Shown here piece after piece: positions 10,781 through 21,883 of a DNA stretch of 64,000 nucleotides. A program made the position numbers and the translations under genes. Every line of letters begins with the position of its first letter. Positions within the stretch are counted from its first letter, which is position 1. Source of the stretch: an uncultured delta proteobacterium (GTDB lineage: Bacteria > Myxococcota_A > Polyangia > Polyangiales > B10-G4); NCBI GenBank assembly GCA_963727445.1, contig CAVSGI010000010.1:1408001-1472000 (forward strand), read 5' to 3'. The notes beneath the pieces are model-generated. The model saw only the letters and a list, made by a program, of their open reading frames with translations, was not told where the DNA came from and made no database searches.

Positions 10781-13174
10781 TCAGCGCCCGAGCATGCGCC
10801 GCCAGAGCGCCACGTTCTGCCGGTGTCGCGCCGCGAGCGGCTCGAGGATGGCGGCGATGGACTCGTGCCCGCGAACCGCATCCCACGACGGGTTGTCCCA
10901 GAACCACGGATAGTTCTCGTTGCCGAGATAGATCGCACGACGCAGCCAAGCCGATGCTTCGTCCACGTCGCCGGCGACAGCGTGATACGTGGCGACGCGA
11001 TAGGCGGTCTCGGGGTCGCAATCCGCCGCCGCACGCACGCTCTCGCCGATGCACGCGGCCGCGCCCTTTCGGTCGCCGAGCGCCAGGCGACACATGGCGA
11101 GGGTGGGGTGGGCGATGCGGAGGTTGGGCTCGTCGCTGACCACCGTTTCGAGGATCTGAGCCGCCTCGGCGTAGCGCTCTTGCCGGAGGCGCAGATAACC
11201 GAGCGTGTTGCGCAGCAGCGGATGGCTCGGTGAGAGGGCGAGCCCCTGCTCGGCCTCCTCCACCGCAGCATCGATCTCACCGCGGTAGTGCAGGATGCGC
11301 GCGCGGTGATTGTAGACGACGTGCGCGTCGTGCGGGTTGAGCGAGAGCGCCGCGTCGAGCTGCCGTTGCGCTTCGCCGTAGACGCCGTCGAGCCGGAGCA
11401 GCGTGGCGGCGACCAGCCGGACGTCGAAGCTGTCGGCCGCCGTCTCGAGGAGGTGATGAACCGCGTGCTGCGCGCTGGACTTTTCGCCGAGCGACAGGAA
11501 GGTGAAGACGCGGAACACCTTGGCTTCGAGACCGCGCGGATCGATCGCTAGAGCCTCTTCGAAGGCGTCGCGGGCGGCGTCGAGGGAGCGCGAGTCCCCG
11601 AATCCGTTGCGCGCGTACTGGAGGTGCGCGACGCCGAGGCCCGAGCGCGCCGGGGCATAGCGGGGCGCCGCGGCCGTCACCTCCTCGAGGAGCTGGCGCG
11701 CGTCGTCGAGCTCCGCGCGCCGCCGCGTTCGCAGCATGAAGCTCGAGAGCTTCGCCCGGGCGCGGATGTACTTCTGTGAGAGCTCGGGTGAAAGGGCGCG
11801 CGTCGGCTCTGTCGCGGGCTCGGGGGCGAGGTCGCCCGAGCCTCTGAGCGACGCGAAGACCTCCTCGGTCACCGACGTCTGAAGCGCCGCGACGTCGAGC
11901 CGTTCACTCGCGAGGGTGTCTCCTGCTGTCACCGTCCCGGCCGCGATGTCGAGGAGCTGCCAGCTGAGCGCGAGCTGGTCGGCGCCGCGGGTCAGGCTCC
12001 CGCTGAGTAGATGGGTGACCCCGAGGCTCTTGCCCGCCTCGACGGGATCGCTCGGCAGCGACGTCATCGCCAGGAGCGACCCCGAGGGCCGCACCGATAT
12101 GCCGCCCAGGCGCGAGAGGCGGCCCGCGATGGCGTCGGCGATGGCGAAGCCGAAGTCGGGACCGGGCGCGGCCGCGCCCTCGCGCACGTCGCGGAAGGGC
12201 AGGACGGCGAGAGACAGCGCCGGCGCCTCGGGCTCGGCGCGATGAACCAACTCCACCAGCGCGCGCACCAGACGACCGGCCTTGGCGCCCGAAGCGGGGC
12301 TCGGCGCGGACGGCGCCACGGTGATGGCGCTCCCGTCGAGGGACAGACCGCGCATCACGGTCTTGAGCGCGTCACGGACCGACGCCGCCGAGTCCTGGCG
12401 CTCCTGCGGGCTCTTGGCGAGCGCACGCATCACGATCGCGCCGAGCTCTTCGGGGAGGTCGGGGCGGACGGTGTCGGCGGGCGTAGGCGTGGCGAACTGG
12501 ATCGAACGCGCGATCAGGCTCGGGTCCCCCGACGTGTCGAAGGGATGGCGACCGGTCAGCATCTTGTAGAGGATGACGCCCAGCGCGAAGACGTCGCTTC
12601 GTTCGCTCGAAGGCCTGCCGACGAACTGTTCCGGCGCCATGTAGCCGACGGTCCCGGCGGGCCCCGACGGCGTGGAGGTCACCGAAGCATCACCGCTCGA
12701 CGCGTCGTCACCGCGCCGCACGGCGAGGCCGAAGTCGAGGATCTTCACCATGCCGCCCTCGGACACCATCACGTTGGAGGGCTTGAGGTCGCGGTGCACG
12801 ATACCCAGCGCGTGCGCGGCAGCGAGCCCCTCGGCGATCTGCAGGCCCACGGAGAGCGCGAGCGGGATCGAGAGCGGTCCGCCGTCGACCAGCTCCGAGA
12901 GCGGCCGGCCCGGCACGTACTGCATCACGAGAAAGGCGCGGTCTCCCTCCTCGGACGCTTCGTAGATCGCGCACACGTTGGGGTGGTCGATCGCGGAAGC
13001 CAGACGGGCCTCGCGCAACAGCCGCGCTTTCGCCGCGTCGCCGGAGGCCTTGAGGGTCTTGAGGACCACGGAGCGCAGCAGATGCGTGTCGTAGGCGTGC
13101 TCGGCGACGCCGTGAGCGCCGGCGGACAGGCGCCGGATCACCTCGTACCGTCCACCACCACGCCGCGTGCTCAC
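10781..13174 (-). CDS. Hanks-type Ser/Thr protein kinase with TolB-N-like domain and TPR repeats
   Basis: HPNV, HRDLKPSN, DFG and GTVGYMAPEQ kinase motifs; SLAVLPFRD domain; C-terminal TPR-like helices. Confidence 0.92.
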   Translation of the reverse strand: MSTRRGGGRYEVIRRLSAGAHGVAEHAYDTHLLRSVVLKTLKASGDAAKARLLREARLASAIDHPNVCAIYEASEEGDRAFLVMQYVPGRPLSELVDGGPLSIPLALSVGLQIAEGLAAAHALGIVHRDLKPSNVMVSEGGMVKILDFGLAVRRGDDASSGDASVTSTPSGPAGTVGYMAPEQFVGRPSSERSDVFALGVILYKMLTGRHPFDTSGDPSLIARSIQFATPTPADTVRPDLPEELGAIVMRALAKSPQERQDSAASVRDALKTVMRGLSLDGSAITVAPSAPSPASGAKAGRLVRALVELVHRAEPEAPALSLAVLPFRDVREGAAAPGPDFGFAIADAIAGRLSRLGGISVRPSGSLLAMTSLPSDPVEAGKSLGVTHLLSGSLTRGADQLALSWQLLDIAAGTVTAGDTLASERLDVAALQTSVTEEVFASLRGSGDLAPEPATEPTRALSPELSQKYIRARAKLSSFMLRTRRRAELDDARQLLEEVTAAAPRYAPARSGLGVAHLQYARNGFGDSRSLDAARDAFEEALAIDPRGLEAKVFRVFTFLSLGEKSSAQHAVHHLLETAADSFDVRLVAATLLRLDGVYGEAQRQLDAALSLNPHDAHVVYNHRARILHYRGEIDAAVEEAEQGLALSPSHPLLRNTLGYLRLRQERYAEAAQILETVVSDEPNLRIAHPTLAMCRLALGDRKGAAACIGESVRAAADCDPETAYRVATYHAVAGDVDEASAWLRRAIYLGNENYPWFWDNPSWDAVRGHESIAAILEPLAARHRQNVALWRRMLGR

Positions 13175-14682: not shown

Positions 14683-16041
14683 GTGGACGAGGAAAAGGTG
14701 TCGATCCCCCGGCGGCTCTTCGAGCTCGCCTGGCCCATCATCGGGCTCAACGTCCTCAACGTCCTGTCGCTGGCGGTGGACACCGCGATGGTCGGACGCC
14801 TCCCTCACCCGGAGCAGGCGCTCGCCGGGCTGAGCTACGCGACCCAGATCATCTTCCTTCTGATGGTGGCGATGATGGGCCTGACCATCGGCGCCGTCGC
14901 TACCGTCTCTCGCGCGCACGGCACCGGGGACGAGGCGCGCGTCAACCACATCCTGCTCCAGTCGACGCAGCTCACGGTGTTGCTCGCCGTCGGCGTCGCC
15001 ATCGCCGGCAACCTCCTCGCCGAAGAGATGCTGCGCGCCCTCGGTGCGACGGACGCGACGCTGGCCCAGGGCCTCGCATACCTGCGCCCGCTCCTCACCT
15101 TCGCCGTCTTCTACTATCTGAACGTCTTGTACGCCGCGGTGCTCCGCGGCGTGGGCAACACCCGCCTGCCCTTCCTGATCGCGCTCGGCTCCAACGCCCT
15201 CAACTTCTGCATCAACTACGTCTTGATCCTCGGCCACTTCGGTGCGCCACGCCTCGGCGTGCAGGGCGCCGCGATCGGCACCGTCGTCTCCTACGCGGCC
15301 GCGTCGCTCACGATGATGTTGCTGCTGCGCCGGGGAACGGTGGCGGGGGTCGTCCTTCGGCTCTCGCCGACCTCGGTCGACCGCGACCTCGCGCGCCAGC
15401 TGATCAAGGTCGGCGCGCCGGCAGCGGCGGACATGGTGATCCTCAACATCGGCTTCCTGTCGATCGTCGGCATGCTCGGGCGCATCGATCAGGCAGCGGT
15501 GGCTGCACACGGCATCGGCCTGCGCATCCAGGCGCTGGCCTTCGTCCCGGGTCTGAGCGTCTCTCAGGCGACGGCCGCCATGGTGGGCAAGGCGCTCGGC
15601 GCCCGCGACGAAGACGAGGCGCGCGCCGTGGTCAAAGCGTCCGTCATCCTCTGCACCGCGATCATGACCACCCTCGCCGTGTCGATCATCGCCGGCGGAA
15701 CGCAGATCGTCCGCGTCTTCGACGTGCCGCAAGGTAGCGACCTCGAGCGGCTGGCCCTCACCTGGATTCAGCTACTCGGCAGCGGCATGCCCATCATCGG
15801 CATCAACATCGGCTTCATCGGGATGTTCCGCGGCTCCGGGGACACCAACACCAGCCTGATGATCAACGTCTTCGCCACCCTGCTGGTCCAGGTCCCCCTC
15901 AGCTGGCTGCTGGGCTTCGGCCTGGGCCTCGGGGCCTTCGGCGTCTGGCTCGCCTTCCCCCTGAGCTTCGTGATCAAGGCCAGCGCCGCCTGGTTCTTCT
16001 ACCTGCGCGGCCGCTGGGCCAAGCTCGGCGCTCGTGTCTGA
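14683..16041 (+). CDS. MATE family efflux transporter
   Basis: About 12 TM helices; ELAWPII, VDTAMVGRL, LRGVGNTRLP, LGVQGAAIGT, FRGSGDT. Confidence 0.95.
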   Translation: MDEEKVSIPRRLFELAWPIIGLNVLNVLSLAVDTAMVGRLPHPEQALAGLSYATQIIFLLMVAMMGLTIGAVATVSRAHGTGDEARVNHILLQSTQLTVLLAVGVAIAGNLLAEEMLRALGATDATLAQGLAYLRPLLTFAVFYYLNVLYAAVLRGVGNTRLPFLIALGSNALNFCINYVLILGHFGAPRLGVQGAAIGTVVSYAAASLTMMLLLRRGTVAGVVLRLSPTSVDRDLARQLIKVGAPAAADMVILNIGFLSIVGMLGRIDQAAVAAHGIGLRIQALAFVPGLSVSQATAAMVGKALGARDEDEARAVVKASVILCTAIMTTLAVSIIAGGTQIVRVFDVPQGSDLERLALTWIQLLGSGMPIIGINIGFIGMFRGSGDTNTSLMINVFATLLVQVPLSWLLGFGLGLGAFGVWLAFPLSFVIKASAAWFFYLRGRWAKLGARV

Positions 16042-16749
16042 AGGCGGGAGCGGCGAGGCGCCCACGAAGGCGAGCACGGCGTCGAGCGCGGAGACGTGCG
16101 CCAGGCGCGAGCGGAGATAGGAAGGGCTGAGCTGCTCGAGACGCGCGATGGCGCGCGCCGCGATGCTCTCCACGTGATAGACGCCGGCGCCCTCGGGCAT
16201 CCGGCCGAGCTCGCGCACCACGGTCTGGCGCGCCGTGGCCGCATCGTAGCGGCGCCGGTAGAGGAGCTCGGAGAGCTCGAGGAGCTCCACGTCGCTCTGC
16301 CTGGCGAGCGCAGCCGCGCCCTCGCCGCGGCGCGGCCGCGCCGTCGCGAGCTTGCGACGTGCAGCCGCCTCCACCAGGCGCTCGCGCACCTTCGCCGCGC
16401 GCCGCCGCCCGGGATGCGCGCGCGGCCGATGCCGAGCGGCGGCCAGCGCCACCGCGAAGGTGTCGCCCGCTTCGAAGGCGCGGGTCAGGCGACCGTCGAC
16501 GTCCTCACCGTCGGCGACAAGCACGTCGAGCTGCGCCGCCGCGCGATCCCGCGCGGCGACGAAACGCTGCTCGAGCTCGGCGATGCGCTTCTCAGCTGTC
16601 TCCCGGAGACGCTCCGCCGCGCCTTCGGGCGCGTCTTCGGCGCGCGCGAGGAGGCGCTCGACCATCGTGAGCGCGGGCGCGTCGAAGAGCCGCGCCCCCT
16701 CTCCTTCGAGGTGACGGAGGCGCTCTGTCAGATGTGCGAGGGTCGTCAT
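15772..16749 (-). CDS. zorG: DUF2894-like protein (ZorG of Zorya type III-like operon); conserved part ends near 16060
   Basis: N-terminal GARLFDAP..VERLLARA and C-terminal PEGAGVYHVESIAARAIARLEQLSPSYLRSRLAHVSAL resemble the DUF2894 consensus as I recall it (P.NAGP.NS..LV.R.L..M..LSP.YL..F..YVD.L). The ORF overlaps the MATE 3' end antisense by 270 bp. Confidence 0.75.
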   Translation of the reverse strand: MTTLAHLTERLRHLEGEGARLFDAPALTMVERLLARAEDAPEGAAERLRETAEKRIAELEQRFVAARDRAAAQLDVLVADGEDVDGRLTRAFEAGDTFAVALAAARHRPRAHPGRRRAAKVRERLVEAAARRKLATARPRRGEGAAALARQSDVELLELSELLYRRRYDAATARQTVVRELGRMPEGAGVYHVESIAARAIARLEQLSPSYLRSRLAHVSALDAVLAFVGASPLPPSDTSAELGPAAAQVEEPGGAGLDHEAQGEGEPDAEGPEAQAEAQQPAEGDLDQQGGEDVDHQAGVGVPGAAEHPDEADVDADDGHAAAE

Positions 16750-16768
16750 CGTTCGCTCGCGCCGAGGC

Positions 16769-19021
16769 TCAGGCAGGGGCCGCGGCCGCGCCGCGCTCCG
16801 CCGCCTGGTTCAGCTGCTCGAAGAGCTCTTGCTGAAAGCCGAGCTGCTGATCGAAGAGCTCGTGGGTCCGGGCCAGGTAGTTGCCGAGGACATCCACCGC
16901 CGCGTGCTCGCCGGCGTCGACCACCGCCTGATCGATCTTGCCGAGGCTCTCGATCCAGGTGTTCGCGGCTTCGCGCTGCTTGTCGACCGCGCCCGCGAAC
17001 ATCTCGGCGACCGCCGCCATCTCGCCGCCGCCGGCGTGCACCAGGCTCGCGGCCTCGCGCACCAGGCCCGCGGTCTCGCGCAGGGTCTCGTCGATGCCCT
17101 TGGCGTGCTCCGACAGATGCGCCGCGAGGGCCTCCGTCCCCGCGCGCTGGCGGTCGGCGAGCTCCTCCTCGAAGACCGCGAGACGCTTCTGCTGCGCCTC
17201 GGCTGCAGCCTCGAATCGGAGGGCGAGATCCGCGATGCGGCTCGCGCCCCGCGTCTCGGCCTCCTCCACGCGGCGGTCGGCTGCCTGCGCGAAGGCCTCG
17301 AGGGCCGCACACTGCGCGGCGGTCGCTTGCGTCATCGCTTCGCCCGCCTGGCCGAAGCGCTCCACCAGCTTCGCGCTCTCTGCCGAGTGGACCTCGCCCG
17401 CGGCCGAGATCTTCTCGAGCAGCTCGGCGTTCAGCGCCTTCTGCGCATCGTTCGCGGCGCTGATCCTCTCGATCAGCTCTGCGGCACGGGCGCTCTGGGC
17501 CTCTTCCGCGGACGCGCTCGCCTCGAGGCGCTCCCGCACCAGGGTGCTCGCCGCGCCGAGGTCGGCCCTGACGCGCTCGGTCAGCGCCCCCAGATTCGCG
17601 GAGACGTTGTCGCTCACGCTGCCGAGGTTCGTCGAGACGCTGTCGGACATGCTGTCGAGGCTCGTCGACACGTTCTCGGTCACCGTTCCCAGGCTCGTCG
17701 ACACGCGCTCGGTCACCGTTCCCAGGCTCGTCGACACGCGCTCGGTCAGCGAATCCATGCTCGTCGACACGTTCTCGGTCACCGCGCCGAGGCTCGTCGA
17801 GACGGTCTCGGTCACCGCGCCGAGGCTCGTCGAGACGGTCTCGCTCAGCGAATCCATGCTCGTCGACACGTTCTCGGTCACCGCACCGAGGCTCGTCGAG
17901 ACGGTGTCGCTCAGCGAATCCATGCTCGTCGACAGGCGCTCGGTGAGCGCGCCGAGGTCCTTCGACATCCGCTCGGTGAGCGCGCCGAGGTTCTGCTCGA
18001 CCTGCTCGGCGAGCGCGTGCGTCCGCTCGCTCCGCGCCTCGTCGTGCTCCGCGACCTTCGCGAGCGAGGTGCGCACCGTCTCGGAGAGCGACTCGATGTG
18101 CTCGCCCAGGTGGGCGGAGCGCTCGGCAGTCTCCTTCGAGAGCTCGGCGAAGCGGGCGGCGCGCGCGTCCTCGGTCGCGGCCATCTTCTCGGTCATCGTC
18201 TGCCACTGGGCAGCGAGCTCCTCGGCGCGCGTCGCCTCGGCCTCGCGGATCTGTCGCGCGTGGGCCTCGAAGGCGATGAGCAGGCGCCCATCGGCGTCGG
18301 CGCGACGCTCGAGCTGCTGGTCGAGGCGGGAGGCGACCTCCTTGAGGTGGCCGTCGAGGGTCTCGACCGCCACCGCCTGCACGCGGCGCCGCTCGGCGGC
18401 ATCGGTCTCGATGGAGTTGCGGATCTCGGCGAGATGCGCCGTGGCGGCTTCGGTCGCCTTCTGCATCGCGTCGGCGGCGACGGGCGCCACCGCCTCCTGG
18501 GCCGCCTTCGCGGCCTTGGCCACGCCCTTCTCCATGTCCTCGCGGATCCGATCGGCGGTGTGGCGGAGCACCCGGCCAATCTCCTCGCGGTCCTTTTCGG
18601 CGGAGGCGCTCGAGGCGTCGCTCAGTCGCTCGAAGGTGCGCTGCGCTTCGGAGACCGCGGCGCCGATGCTGGCGCTGGTGCTCTCGGCGCTCTCGCCGAT
18701 CACCCGGCGCGTCTCGTGAATCGTCTCGGCGTGGGCCTCGCCCAGGCTCGTCTCGAGCTGGCGGAGCCGCTCGACGGCGCTCGCGAGCGCATCGGCGGCC
18801 TCGGGCAGCGCGCGCCCCTGGTCGGCCAGGCTCTCGAGGGCCGCGAGGTTCCTCTCTCGCGCGGGACGCGCGAGCGCCTCCGCCACTGCGACAACGATGG
18901 CGATGGCCAGGCCGCAGAAGATCGCCGGAGCGACTGCATCGGCGCCGAGCCAGAGAGCTCCCACGAGAGCGGTGATGGCGAAGGCGACCGCGCCCATGCC
19001 GACGATTGCATTTCGATTCAT
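16769..19021 (-). CDS. zorA: DUF802-like ZorA homologue: N-terminal TM hairpin plus ~690-aa coiled-coil tail, lacking a MotA/ExbB-type channel segment
   Basis: C-terminus GGGEMAAVAEMFAGAVDKQREAANTWIESLGKIDQAV...LGNYLARTHELFDQQLGFQQELFEQL resembles the DUF802-protein C-terminus. Only two hydrophobic helices, both in the first ~50 aa. ATGA overlap with the upstream gene. Confidence 0.75.
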   Translation of the reverse strand: MNRNAIVGMGAVAFAITALVGALWLGADAVAPAIFCGLAIAIVVAVAEALARPARERNLAALESLADQGRALPEAADALASAVERLRQLETSLGEAHAETIHETRRVIGESAESTSASIGAAVSEAQRTFERLSDASSASAEKDREEIGRVLRHTADRIREDMEKGVAKAAKAAQEAVAPVAADAMQKATEAATAHLAEIRNSIETDAAERRRVQAVAVETLDGHLKEVASRLDQQLERRADADGRLLIAFEAHARQIREAEATRAEELAAQWQTMTEKMAATEDARAARFAELSKETAERSAHLGEHIESLSETVRTSLAKVAEHDEARSERTHALAEQVEQNLGALTERMSKDLGALTERLSTSMDSLSDTVSTSLGAVTENVSTSMDSLSETVSTSLGAVTETVSTSLGAVTENVSTSMDSLTERVSTSLGTVTERVSTSLGTVTENVSTSLDSMSDSVSTNLGSVSDNVSANLGALTERVRADLGAASTLVRERLEASASAEEAQSARAAELIERISAANDAQKALNAELLEKISAAGEVHSAESAKLVERFGQAGEAMTQATAAQCAALEAFAQAADRRVEEAETRGASRIADLALRFEAAAEAQQKRLAVFEEELADRQRAGTEALAAHLSEHAKGIDETLRETAGLVREAASLVHAGGGEMAAVAEMFAGAVDKQREAANTWIESLGKIDQAVVDAGEHAAVDVLGNYLARTHELFDQQLGFQQELFEQLNQAAERGAAAAPA
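17561..17989 (-). repeat. Intragenic tandem repeat, 13 x 33 bp, encoding 11-aa units (LGAVTENVSTS / MDSLSETVSTS)
   Basis: 429 bp = 13 x 33, with near-identical DNA units such as GGCTCGTCGACACGTTCTCGGTCACCG. Confidence 0.95.
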
Positions 19022-19854
19022 TGGTTACCTCTGGACGCGATCTCACACGCCGCGTCGACGAGCTGGGTGAGGAGCTCCGCGTCTCGATCGTACAGAGCGA
19101 GCGCGAGCGCCTCGGCATCGCGCACGTGGGCGCGGATGAAGCCATCCTCGGCGAGCCATCCCTCGGCGGCGGCGACGACCGCGGGGTCGTCAATCGGTCC
19201 ATCGGGGAGCGCCTCGGCGGCGTGGATGAAAGCGGCCTCGAAGGACTCTTCGAGACGCTCCGTGAGTTGGTCCATGAGCTCGCGCGTGCCGACCAGGAGC
19301 GCGCGGGAGAGCGCGGCATCGATACGCTCGATCTCCGTGGCCTCGGGTCCGAGGCGTTGGATCTCGGGGGTCAGGTCGTCGCGCAGGAAGACCAGCTCCG
19401 CGCGCGCCGTCCGGAGCGCGCGCCCGAAGCGCTGACCGTGCGCGTAGGAGCACGCCTTCGCCACGCGCGCGAGCGTCTTCTTCGTGCCTTTCGGCCGCGC
19501 GCCATTCGCCTCGAGGGTCTTCAGGAGCTCCGCGGCGTTTGGCAGCCGGTCGGTGCCGTCGAAGGCGGTTTCATAACGCCGGAGGATCTGATTTCGAATG
19601 GCGCGGATGCGGAGGGTGAGGCGCTCGCGAAAGACGAGGGTCTGCTCGAGAACCGTCTCGAGATCCTGCGGCGTCTCACCCGAAACCCCCGTATCGAGGA
19701 GGTCGCTGAGCCAGATGCTCCCGTTGATCTCGAAGCGGCCGCCGAGGGCTTCGGCGGGCCCCCGCCGCTCGATCTCGGCCGGTGCCCAATGCGCCGCACC
19801 CGCCAGTCGCGACAGCGGCGCCTCCACCGTCTTCACTCTCCGAGGTGTACGCAT
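19018..19854 (-). CDS. zorF: DUF3348-like protein (ZorF of Zorya type III-like operon)
   Basis: PLSRLAG...AEALGGRFEINGSIWLSDLLD, IQRLGPEATEIERIDAALSRAL...ERLEESF and a C-terminal W...LTQLVDA match the pattern I recall for DUF3348. First gene before the DUF802-like and DUF2894-like genes. Confidence 0.7.
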   Translation of the reverse strand: MRTPRRVKTVEAPLSRLAGAAHWAPAEIERRGPAEALGGRFEINGSIWLSDLLDTGVSGETPQDLETVLEQTLVFRERLTLRIRAIRNQILRRYETAFDGTDRLPNAAELLKTLEANGARPKGTKKTLARVAKACSYAHGQRFGRALRTARAELVFLRDDLTPEIQRLGPEATEIERIDAALSRALLVGTRELMDQLTERLEESFEAAFIHAAEALPDGPIDDPAVVAAAEGWLAEDGFIRAHVRDAEALALALYDRDAELLTQLVDAACEIASRGNQ

Positions 19855-20014: not shown

Positions 20015-21883
20015 TCAGGTCCCGCGATTCGCGCGCGCCATCCAGTGGCCGGTGATGACGACGGGGATCGCGAGGCAGGCGAAGACCTCGAGGTGGTAGG
20101 CGGGCAGCGCCCAGGCGACGAGCGCCACGATGTAGTGGCCGAGGGTGAGCGGAAGCCAGGGCCAGCCGAGCGTCCCGAGCAACGTCGCCCACAAGGTGCC
20201 GTTGACGAAGGCGCCGATGACGGTGGCGTGGGGCATGGAGACGCCCAACGCGCCGAGGAGCGGCCACAGAACCATCGACTGCGCGAAGACGAGCAGGCTG
20301 GTGAGGGTCACGCGCCGGTTGGTCGCGTTGAGCAGCATCTTGCGCCACCACACCATCCCGCTGAGCCCGGCGCCTACCAGGAAGGTCGTGCCCAGGAGCG
20401 CGAAACGCACGTGGTCGACCGGCCAGATGTCGAAGCGCGTGAGCGCGCTGGTGCCGAGGCAGAAGGCGGCAAAGCCCGCGGCGGACACGTAGAGGCGGAC
20501 TACGCGCTCGCGCAGACCGAAGCCGAGATCCGCGTCGCGCTCCACCCTGTCGAGGGCGCGCGCCGCCTGCTCCACCGCACCCCGCAGCACTTCGGGCGGC
20601 GCGTCGTGCTGCCGGAGGAGCGTCTTGGCGACCCGCGGGCTGCCGCGCTCGAGCTGGAATTCGATCATCGCCTCGAGGAGCGTTCGACGCCCTCGGATGG
20701 CGCGCTCGTTCTCGGGCCAGCTCCGCAACGCCTGATCGAAAGCGAAGCGCCCCTCGTGAAAGAGCGCCTCAATCGTCTCCTGGTCGGCCTCGGAGCGTTC
20801 CCCGTCGATCTGGGAGGCGCGTCGCAGCTCTTCGGTTCGCCGCTCGGCTTCCTCGCAGAGCTCGACGCTCCCCCAGTGAAGGAGGAAGTCGTCGATGGCC
20901 TCGGCGAAGGCCTCCGCGCTCTCGAAGCGCTTCTCCGGCTCGCGCGCCATCGCCTGCCGAGCGATCGCTGCGAGCTCGCGCGGGACGTGCTCGTCATAGG
21001 TCGGCGTCTGCGAGACGAACGCTTTCATGAGGGCCGCGCTCACGTGCGCTGCTTCGTGAGGAGGCTTGCCGGTGATGAGCTCGTGCAGCGTGGCACCGAG
21101 GAGATAGACGTCGGAGAAGACGCCCAGCCCCTCGCCCTTCCCGAGCGCCATCTCCGGCGACATGTAGAGGGGCGTCCCCTCGATGCGTTTGACGTCGCGC
21201 GCCCGCGGCACGCCGAGCGGCCCGACCTCGCTCAGGCTCACGGCGACGCCCCAATCGACGAGGTAGACCTCGCCGAAGCCGCCGATCATCACGTTCTCGG
21301 GCTTGATGTCGCGATGGAGGATGCCGAGCGAATGCGCGAAGTGGAGCGCGCTCGCGACCTGCCGGAGGATCGAGAGGTGCTTGCGGATGAACGCGGGGTC
21401 GTGCCGTTCCGTCGGCGGCACGCCTTCAATCATCGACGACCACGGCTCGCCGTCGATGCGCTTCATGACGATGAGCGGCTTGCCCTCTTGGTCACGCCCC
21501 AGCATGTGCACCGGCACCACGTTCGGGTGCTCGAGGAGCCCCGTGACCCGTCCTTCGCGCAGGAGCTGAAGTGCCTGCTCTGCCCGCGGCACGTCGACGC
21601 GCAGCGCCTTGACTGCGACCGTGCGCTGGAGGGCGGTCTGGGTCGCGGAGCGCACCACCCCCATCCCCCCTTCCCCGATCGGATCACCCAGGAGGATCGG
21701 CGCGATCCCTCCATCCGTCGTCGGCTCGAGGAGCGGGTCGAGCGCGCCGCGAGCCGGCGCGGAGAGCGACTCGATGGTATCCACCGACGCGATCGTGTCG
21801 CTCAGAGACAGCTCCTCCGGCTCGATGCCGAGCTCCGCCCAGGTCTTGCGAAGCGTCGCGTCAGGGGTCGTGTCGGTGGACAT
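20015..21883 (-). CDS. Hanks-type Ser/Thr protein kinase with C-terminal multi-TM domain
   Basis: IGEGGMGVV, VAVK, HRDIKPEN, DWG, GTPLYMSPE; about 6 C-terminal TM helices. Confidence 0.92.
   Translation of the reverse strand: MSTDTTPDATLRKTWAELGIEPEELSLSDTIASVDTIESLSAPARGALDPLLEPTTDGGIAPILLGDPIGEGGMGVVRSATQTALQRTVAVKALRVDVPRAEQALQLLREGRVTGLLEHPNVVPVHMLGRDQEGKPLIVMKRIDGEPWSSMIEGVPPTERHDPAFIRKHLSILRQVASALHFAHSLGILHRDIKPENVMIGGFGEVYLVDWGVAVSLSEVGPLGVPRARDVKRIEGTPLYMSPEMALGKGEGLGVFSDVYLLGATLHELITGKPPHEAAHVSAALMKAFVSQTPTYDEHVPRELAAIARQAMAREPEKRFESAEAFAEAIDDFLLHWGSVELCEEAERRTEELRRASQIDGERSEADQETIEALFHEGRFAFDQALRSWPENERAIRGRRTLLEAMIEFQLERGSPRVAKTLLRQHDAPPEVLRGAVEQAARALDRVERDADLGFGLRERVVRLYVSAAGFAAFCLGTSALTRFDIWPVDHVRFALLGTTFLVGAGLSGMVWWRKMLLNATNRRVTLTSLLVFAQSMVLWPLLGALGVSMPHATVIGAFVNGTLWATLLGTLGWPWLPLTLGHYIVALVAWALPAYHLEVFACLAIPVVITGHWMARANRGT

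Follow-up and report, generated by a model that had tools for sequence, protein, structure and literature searches.

Layout of the operon and assignment of its genes

The window analysed here is a 64,000-nucleotide stretch of contig CAVSGI010000010.1 (positions 1,408,001 to 1,472,000) from the genome of an uncultured delta proteobacterium of the order Polyangiales (GCA_963727445.1, hereafter G000; 9.47 Mb in 27 contigs). At 15772..19854 it carries three minus-strand open reading frames (ORFs) that encode a DUF3348 protein, a 750-aa protein resembling the ZorA3 of the anti-phage system Zorya type III, and a DUF2894 protein, with no zorB (Table 1). As a preliminary description of this DNA had proposed, and as the sequence confirms, the three genes are tightly coupled. 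The stop codon of the first gene and the start codon of the second overlap as ATGA (...CAATGAATCG...), and 19 bases separate the stop codon of the second gene from the ATG of the third, leaving no space for a fourth. The region is 70% GC, and the periodicity of GC at third codon positions backs all three minus-strand frames. An 857-aa alternative frame at 16746-19319 was rejected as an Arg-rich off-frame artefact of 70% GC DNA.

The outer two genes belong to the families that the preliminary description had proposed for them. The product of the last gene (P0003) matched Pfam PF11445 (DUF2894) with 33.0 bits, above the cut-off of 25, and the PADLOC model PDLC00652 with an E value of 4.5e-6. The product of the first gene (P0001) scored 23.7 bits against PF11828 (DUF3348), slightly below the cut-off of 25, and matched PADLOC PDLC00657 (E 9.6e-6) as well as a profile of the relatives' DUF3348 proteins, canonical loci included (248 bits). 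Therefore, two features by which Zorya type III is recognized, a DUF3348 gene upstream of zorA and a DUF2894 gene at the operon's 3′ end, are present. Two others are absent: the long protein (P0002) has no MotA_ExbB (PF01618) match in Pfam and thus no channel domain by this measure, and no zorB adjoins the DUF2894 gene, which the 19-bp gap directly precedes.

P0002 matched the PADLOC ZorA3 models only from about profile position 208 onward, C-terminal end included, with 29 bits against positions 559-688 of PDLC00648. It also matched Apolipoprotein and other coiled-coil families in Pfam, and NCBIfam returned sub-threshold coiled-coil matches only. The label DUF802 (which we take to be PF05650), given to this protein in the preliminary description, did not hold, since P0002 had no match to it at E<=1 and the canonical ZorA3 proteins of relatives (n=5; four whole, one cut) had none at E<=0.01. 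In the naming of the other two proteins, the preliminary description agrees with the text of Payne et al. 2021 (PMC8565338), in which, as in that of PMC11890865, DUF3348 is ZorF and DUF2894 is ZorG. The labels are reversed in PADLOC-DB v2 (DUF3348 model, ZorG3; DUF2894 model, ZorF3); because these names run opposite to those of the paper, we use the domain names here.

Table 1. Features of the three-gene locus and its immediate flanks, in window coordinates
Feature	Coordinates	Strand	Details
DUF3348-family gene (P0001)	19018..19854	-	278 aa; Pfam, PADLOC, relatives' profile
Tail-only ZorA3-like gene (P0002)	16769..19021	-	750 aa; hydrophobic hairpin and ~695-aa helical tail, no channel domain
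P0002 residues 1-54, presumed transmembrane hairpin	18860..19021	-	two hydrophobic segments; hydropathy
P0002 residues 55-90, tail-start motif R..L.ALE.LA.QG..LP.AA.AL	18752..18859	-	deletion junction at the motif's 5′ edge
33-bp tandem array in the P0002 tail	17604..17957	-	10.7 copies; Tandem Repeats Finder
P0002 residues 561-750, conserved tail tip	16772..17341	-	tail-tip profile 250-254 bits
DUF2894 ORF (P0003)	15772..16749	-	325 aa
DUF2894 functional part, residues 1-~236	16042..16749	-	Pfam PF11445, PADLOC PDLC00652, structure model
DUF2894 ORF, C-terminal ~90 codons	15772..16041	-	antisense to MatE 3′ end; acidic extension
MatE transporter gene	14683-16041	+	convergent flank; Pfam MatE match
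Ser/Thr kinase gene	20015-21883	-	160 bp upstream of the operon, same strand

The ZorA-like protein retains the tail and lacks the channel

To locate what is missing from P0002, we used a 238-position profile built from 45 canonical N-domains. Residues 1-55 of P0002 aligned to profile positions 1-55 (14.8 bits) and residues 55-90 to positions 202-237 (28.4 bits), so that positions 56-201, a block of ~146, are absent. Alignment with the canonical ZorA3 of relatives places in this block a loop, the helix LLGTxLGLFETL and then a transmembrane helix. The deletion thus runs as the preliminary description had mapped it, with the N-terminal hydrophobic pair leading straight into the post-channel helix. 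R57, L59, L65, P73 and A75 of the tail start were invariant among the eight sequences aligned, as were 20 further columns. The tail tip scored 254 bits against the profile common to the canonical ZorA3 proteins of the order, with 74% identity to its counterpart in a second genome of the same genus (G001) and 37-43% to canonical ZorA3 tips.

Kyte-Doolittle hydropathy confirmed that P0002 has only two hydrophobic segments, both N-terminal (within residues 4-54), and none further on. The canonical ZorA3 of relatives has two N-terminal hydrophobic segments and two later ones, and we tentatively regard the P0002 hairpin as homologous to the N-terminal pair. With the later pair gone, the tail would still face the cytoplasm. 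In EcZorA, as described in the text of PMC11946911, it is the later helices that line ZorB, whereas transmembrane helix 1 is peripheral and lipid-facing.

ZorB and the channel domain are absent together

The distribution of the system was surveyed in 401 genomes of the order Polyangiales, with a ZorB3 threshold of E<=1e-35, and in a phylum sample of 401 genomes. In the order, the tail tip was found in 59 genomes, ZorB3 in 56, and both, encoded next to each other, in 54. Five of the 59 have the tail tip without ZorB3 (G000, G001, G003, G024 and G017), and two genomes have ZorB3 and no tail-tip match at the threshold used. Canonical four-gene relatives scored 196-241 bits for ZorA3 over the whole PADLOC profile and 264-285 bits for ZorB3. 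We fetched 61 loci of the order and compared each of their ORFs with five profiles, one per part; the gene order is DUF3348, A, (B), DUF2894 in every locus. Among the 56 loci with ZorB, a channel domain is present in all 47 with an N-terminally complete ZorA, the other nine being cut by contig ends. It is present in none of the five ZorB-less loci of the order; the N-terminus in one of these, G024, is cut by a contig end, and its visible spacing of 7 residues from the transmembrane segment to the motif is that of the motor-less form (canonical, ~24 residues). The joint loss of channel and ZorB suggested for the locus of the window is therefore seen throughout, in that no ZorB-less locus shows a channel domain.

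In the phylum sample, the tail tip was found in 18 genomes, 14 of them new, and 13 of these 14 have an adjacent ZorB3. The remaining one (G598), from another family outside the order, has a three-gene ZorB-less locus with a 421-aa tail-only protein. The three-gene architecture, which the preliminary description had proposed to look for in other Myxococcota, thus recurs in G001, G003, G024, G017 and G598. The reading frames are intact, as had been claimed for the G000 locus: all three in the five complete loci, and two on the cut G024 contig. The membrane tether claimed for the system is a less general trait. The hydrophobic hairpin is present in the G000, G001 and G003 proteins, and those of G017 and G598 lack a hydrophobic N-terminus, so that the motor-less class comprises soluble as well as anchored forms.

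The surroundings of the operon were scanned for five motor-less loci (G000, G001, G003, G024 and G017) and are not the same. MatE is the flanking gene in both G000 and G001; in G017 the neighbours are RF3 and a gene of the amidohydrolase family (dihydroorotase-like). No gene beyond the three is common to these five neighbourhoods, and no substitute component is apparent in them. A 170-aa OmpA-domain protein of G024 (L022, 5790-6302) was considered as a displaced ZorB and rejected because it has no PADLOC ZorB match; it is encoded 480 bp past the locus, two genes beyond the DUF2894 gene and after an opposite-strand DUF1244 gene. Two irregular loci were also seen. An otherwise canonical four-gene one in G046 (L066, 1377-3742) has ZorA divided between a 335-aa channel ORF and a slightly overlapping 470-aa tail ORF; a frameshift, an error in sequencing or a genuine division of the gene may each account for this. 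Another, a canonical locus in G480 (L103, 5993-7217), has ~1.2 kb between the end of zorA and zorB, where overlaps or short gaps are found elsewhere.

The architecture was also sought globally. A search with the whole 750-aa protein gave two matches, being swamped by repetitive words; the tail-tip profile worked better and, out of 1.84 billion cluster representatives, retrieved 285 at E<=0.001. The best 150 of the 285 include 86 with the channel core, 3 with part of it, 10 tail-only proteins in which two N-terminal hydrophobic segments lead straight into the tail, 4 tail-only proteins without hydrophobic segments, and 47 short or fragmentary sequences. Among these best 150, the hairpin-and-tail architecture is therefore common to ten distinct 50%-identity clusters. 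One ZorA3-like representative retrieved with the tail-tip profile (P0038, 756 aa) matches canonical N-domain profile positions 1-118 and 163-237 and not 119-162, and is possibly an intermediate lacking only part of the channel.

Evidence for independent origins

Trees were built from the concatenated DUF3348, tail-tip and DUF2894 parts, aligned with hmmalign, by quick searches in which the root was not inferred. Under LG+G4 with 56 rows, the presence and absence of the motor require at least 3 state changes, forced by branches with Shimodaira-Hasegawa-like approximate likelihood ratio test (SH-aLRT) support >=95. A C20 site-mixture model with 61 rows, G598 added, requires at least 4. The G003 locus has as its sister group the canonical loci from the taxonomic family to which it belongs (support 98), and the G017 locus is nested within a clade of canonical loci (support 98). 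That the five motor-less loci form one clade is rejected by an approximately unbiased (AU) test (delta lnL 129.9, p 1.6e-55). These trees indicate that the motor was lost independently at least three to four times. Because tail-coding DNA separates the channel part of zorA from zorB, each origin needs two deletions. Since neither loss is ever seen alone, channel and ZorB would each seem to have no use once the other is gone.

Selection on the three genes

We estimated the ratio of nonsynonymous to synonymous substitution rates (dN/dS) between G000 and G001 by the Nei-Gojobori method; with dS at ~0.8-1.3, all values are approximate because dS is near saturation. The ratio was 0.29 for the DUF3348 gene, 0.40 for the hairpin, 0.54 for the tail start, 0.26 for the tail tip and 0.18 for the DUF2894 part, with 0.26 for the flanking MatE gene. 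These estimates indicate purifying selection on all three genes after motor loss. Relaxed selection, which the preliminary description had named as a sign that would speak against its reading, was not seen in the conserved parts (0.18-0.40).

The tail and its partners

The middle of the P0002 tail contains a tandem array whose 33-bp unit corresponds to 11 codons and which is also readable as 66- and 99-bp units; its translation shows repeated ..LGAVTENVSTS.. units. Tail proteins of close relatives differ greatly in length, from 533 aa (P0005) through 750 aa (P0002) to 956 aa (G001), which suggests repeat expansion and contraction. Very long ORF arrays in two other genomes (L016 and L017, from G039 and G009, with open frames of up to ~2000 aa) match only the repeat region of P0002 (residues ~330-530) and encode repeat proteins unrelated to Zorya.

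The hydrophobic periodicity of the G000 tail peaks at ~3.63 residues (power 199, compared with 51 +/- 12 for shuffles), and three canonical tails peak at ~3.63 residues too. The tail of EcZorA is right-handed and super-helical according to the text of PMC11946911, and a periodicity above the heptad value of 3.5 fits such a right-handed twist.

For the partners, AlphaFold2 predicted all-helical folds, with a predicted local distance difference test score (pLDDT) of 91.1 and a predicted template modelling score (pTM) of 0.87 for P0001, and a pLDDT of 87.2 and a pTM of 0.58 for residues 1-240 of P0003. Foldseek searches of the Protein Data Bank (PDB) with both models returned nothing at E<=0.001, the top rows being designed helical bundles.

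A probable motor-less derivative of Zorya type III

Together, these results support that the locus is a selected, recurrent, motor-less derivative of Zorya type III, a reading that we consider probable; recurrence combined with selection speaks against both decay and assembly error. It would descend from a four-gene operon with a DUF3348 gene, zorA, zorB and a DUF2894 gene, from which two separate deletions would have removed the part of zorA for the loop and the two ZorB-lining channel helices, and zorB itself. What remains is a short, presumed two-helix membrane anchor joined straight to the long ZorA tail, together with two all-helical partners. The tail may still bundle into a non-heptad coiled coil, anchored in the inner membrane and, at EcZorA geometry, ~95 nm long (694 residues, scaled from 507 residues for 70 nm), with the tail-start motif and the tip as the places where the DUF3348 and DUF2894 proteins may dock. 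Such a module would work without ion-driven rotation, and its trigger would then not be torque; we infer a rotation-independent tail scaffold for two helical partners.

Whether the output would still be phage defence or a new cellular role is a matter on which we hold the two about equally probable, and the housekeeping-like chromosomal settings of the loci are compatible with either. A bolder proposal is that the tail and the DUF3348 and DUF2894 proteins form an autonomous sensing or effector module able to work without any ion-driven rotation, the motor of Zorya III being a dispensable trigger. Lineages shedding the motor would then have repeatedly switched trigger; the tail or the partners might, for example, bind a phage or envelope cue directly. 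We advance this tentatively and would sooner expect it to fail than to hold. A module that acts without rotation conflicts with the type I mechanism; either the type III partners answer something other than torque, or these loci may have left defence.

Several observations count against our reading. G000 is only 85.6% complete, and a search for sequencing runs with the locus found three metagenome runs, each with <=8% of the sampled words, and no RNA run listed. The hairpin matches the canonical N-terminal pair weakly, with a score that hydrophobic composition biases, and the membrane tether is not essential to the module, because two motor-less lineages have no hydrophobic N-terminus. In the trees, the motor-less rows sit on long branches (0.84-1.47; median, 0.22), which either relaxed constraint or sparse sampling might explain. 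The tail middle has a dN/dS of ~1.05, a value that is unreliable because 29% identity and repeats spoil the alignment. Neither partner appears from the models to have a recognizable catalytic fold, so that no effector activity can be named. Finally, in E. coli type I Zorya both the motor-dead ZorB D26N and the protonophore CCCP (carbonyl cyanide m-chlorophenylhydrazone) abolish defence, as reported in the text of PMC11946911. Because type I needs its motor, a motor-less system that retained defence would contradict the only worked-out mechanism.

The alternative that survives best, though we think it unlikely, is that the tail-only protein uses a motor encoded elsewhere. Its hairpin would insert into or dock on another 5:2 stator-type complex, of the Tol, Exb, Agl or Mot kind, and the tail would go on being driven by rotation or proton flux. 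G000 has 7 MotA_ExbB-family loci elsewhere and many OmpA-domain proteins. If the retained pair resembles the peripheral, lipid-facing first helix of EcZorA (described in the text of PMC11946911), it could pack on another complex. However, all 7 loci are on other contigs, none at or near the operon; the five scanned neighbourhoods have no extra gene in common; and G017 and G598 keep the three genes without any hydrophobic N-terminus. A cognate partner at a distance was not found either. The search of the genome for an orphan zorB that the preliminary description had recommended gave none in G000, within the completeness of that assembly: its best ZorB3-model matches (96 and 91 bits) cover the OmpA part only and are coiled-coil + OmpA proteins at other loci. 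True ZorB3 proteins of the survey score 161-298 bits, and >=197 in all but one that is cut by a contig end. More widely, ZorB3 is missing from all 6 motor-less genomes at E<=1e-35 or 1e-30, and each has one tail-tip match. G000 holds a single DUF2894 match, a single DUF3348 match and a single ZorA3-tail locus, all of them here.

Decay is, to our judgement, somewhat less plausible again. The locus would then be the remnant of a four-gene Zorya III whose frames are intact by chance, and it is true that defence loci are often lost, that the motor-less rows have long branches, that the tail middle evolves with dN/dS ~1, and that the Pfam and PADLOC scores are low. Against this, frames are open in every complete locus and in the two genes of the cut G024 contig, and dN/dS of 0.18-0.40 over dS ~0.8-1.3 equals that of the flanking MatE. 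The tight coupling of the genes has been kept, the frame is preserved across the internal deletion of ~146 positions, and ten distinct clusters have the same hairpin-and-tail architecture.

A chance association has very little to recommend it. P0002 would be an unrelated coiled-coil protein that matches ZorA3 through low-complexity helix and has DUF-family neighbours by coincidence; the ZorA3 model does match in 7 of 14 control genomes, and P0002 also resembles Apolipoprotein and other coiled-coil families, but its tail tip and the invariant residues of its start motif are specifically common to the canonical ZorA3 of the order, and the order DUF3348-A-DUF2894 is the canonical one minus zorB in every locus. 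Scarcely credible, finally, is a loss of the channel region and zorB through faulty assembly or binning: although this is a draft genome in 27 contigs, and no sequencing run with the locus was found, such an artefact needs two separate, in-frame, precisely bounded absences, while the independent same-genus assembly G001 has the identical two junctions and flanking MatE gene, and four other genomes have the same architecture.

Flanking genes and other features

The DUF2894 ORF reaches its stop only after reading ~90 codons of the convergent MatE gene's 3′ end in antisense, giving a 270-bp overlap, and G001 has a matching overlap (L018, 5534-5803). Codon-position GC in the overlap tracks the MatE (+) frame, and dN/dS in the minus (P0003) frame is 1.13 between G000 and G001. 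The C-terminal ~90 codons of P0003 are probably an unselected acidic extension; we set the functional DUF2894 part at about residues 1-236 because the GC of the remaining codons follows the MatE frame. A promoter and terminator scan gave nothing above shuffles. A gene for a TPR-bearing Ser/Thr kinase lies at 10781-13174 of the window, two genes beyond the MatE side, and a kinase-AAA-TPR gene is also found near the G024 locus.

Comparison with known Zorya systems

The standard definitions of Zorya rest on the zorAB pair, as set out in the texts of PMC8565338 and PMC11890865. Searches built on such definitions therefore probably miss the motor-less class, and full-text literature searches, supplementary tables aside, turned up no Zorya described as lacking ZorB or the channel. 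The hairpin-anchored form, the strict co-absence of channel and ZorB, the multiple origins and the estimate of selection are newly described here. Several times over, lineages have discarded precisely the rotor and stator parts, while the tail and both partners stayed under purifying selection. This amounts to a natural separation-of-function experiment, one suggesting that tail and partners have value on their own and pinpointing the tail-start motif and tip as the parts that matter. Small three-gene constructs, some of them fully soluble, would also offer a route to the function of the DUF3348 and DUF2894 proteins.

Zorya type III (Payne et al. 2021, PMC8565338) has, as far as its text describes, the same two accessory families in the same gene order. 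In our data, its ZorA tail is homologous to that of P0002 from the start motif to the tip, and the full four-gene form occurs in relatives within the order. The locus differs in having no ZorB and a ZorA without the cytoplasmic loop and the two channel helices. Because ZorB and the channel block are absent, it lacks an ion path, an anchor in the peptidoglycan and a rotor-stator pair. Phage protection by type III is shown, in the text of PMC8565338, only for a four-gene Stenotrophomonas system in E. coli.

The ZorA5B2 complex of E. coli type I, with its 70-nm tail (Hu et al. 2024, PMC11946911, as described in its text), shares with the present protein a long helical, non-heptad tail, whereas the partners here are helical proteins of unknown activity rather than the E. 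coli ZorC and ZorD. The E. coli tail works only on an active, proton-driven motor, according to the same text, and here that motor is gone. Deletion of the E. coli tail tip abolishes effector recruitment (text of PMC11946911), and it is again the tip that is the most conserved part of the tail in the motor-less locus.

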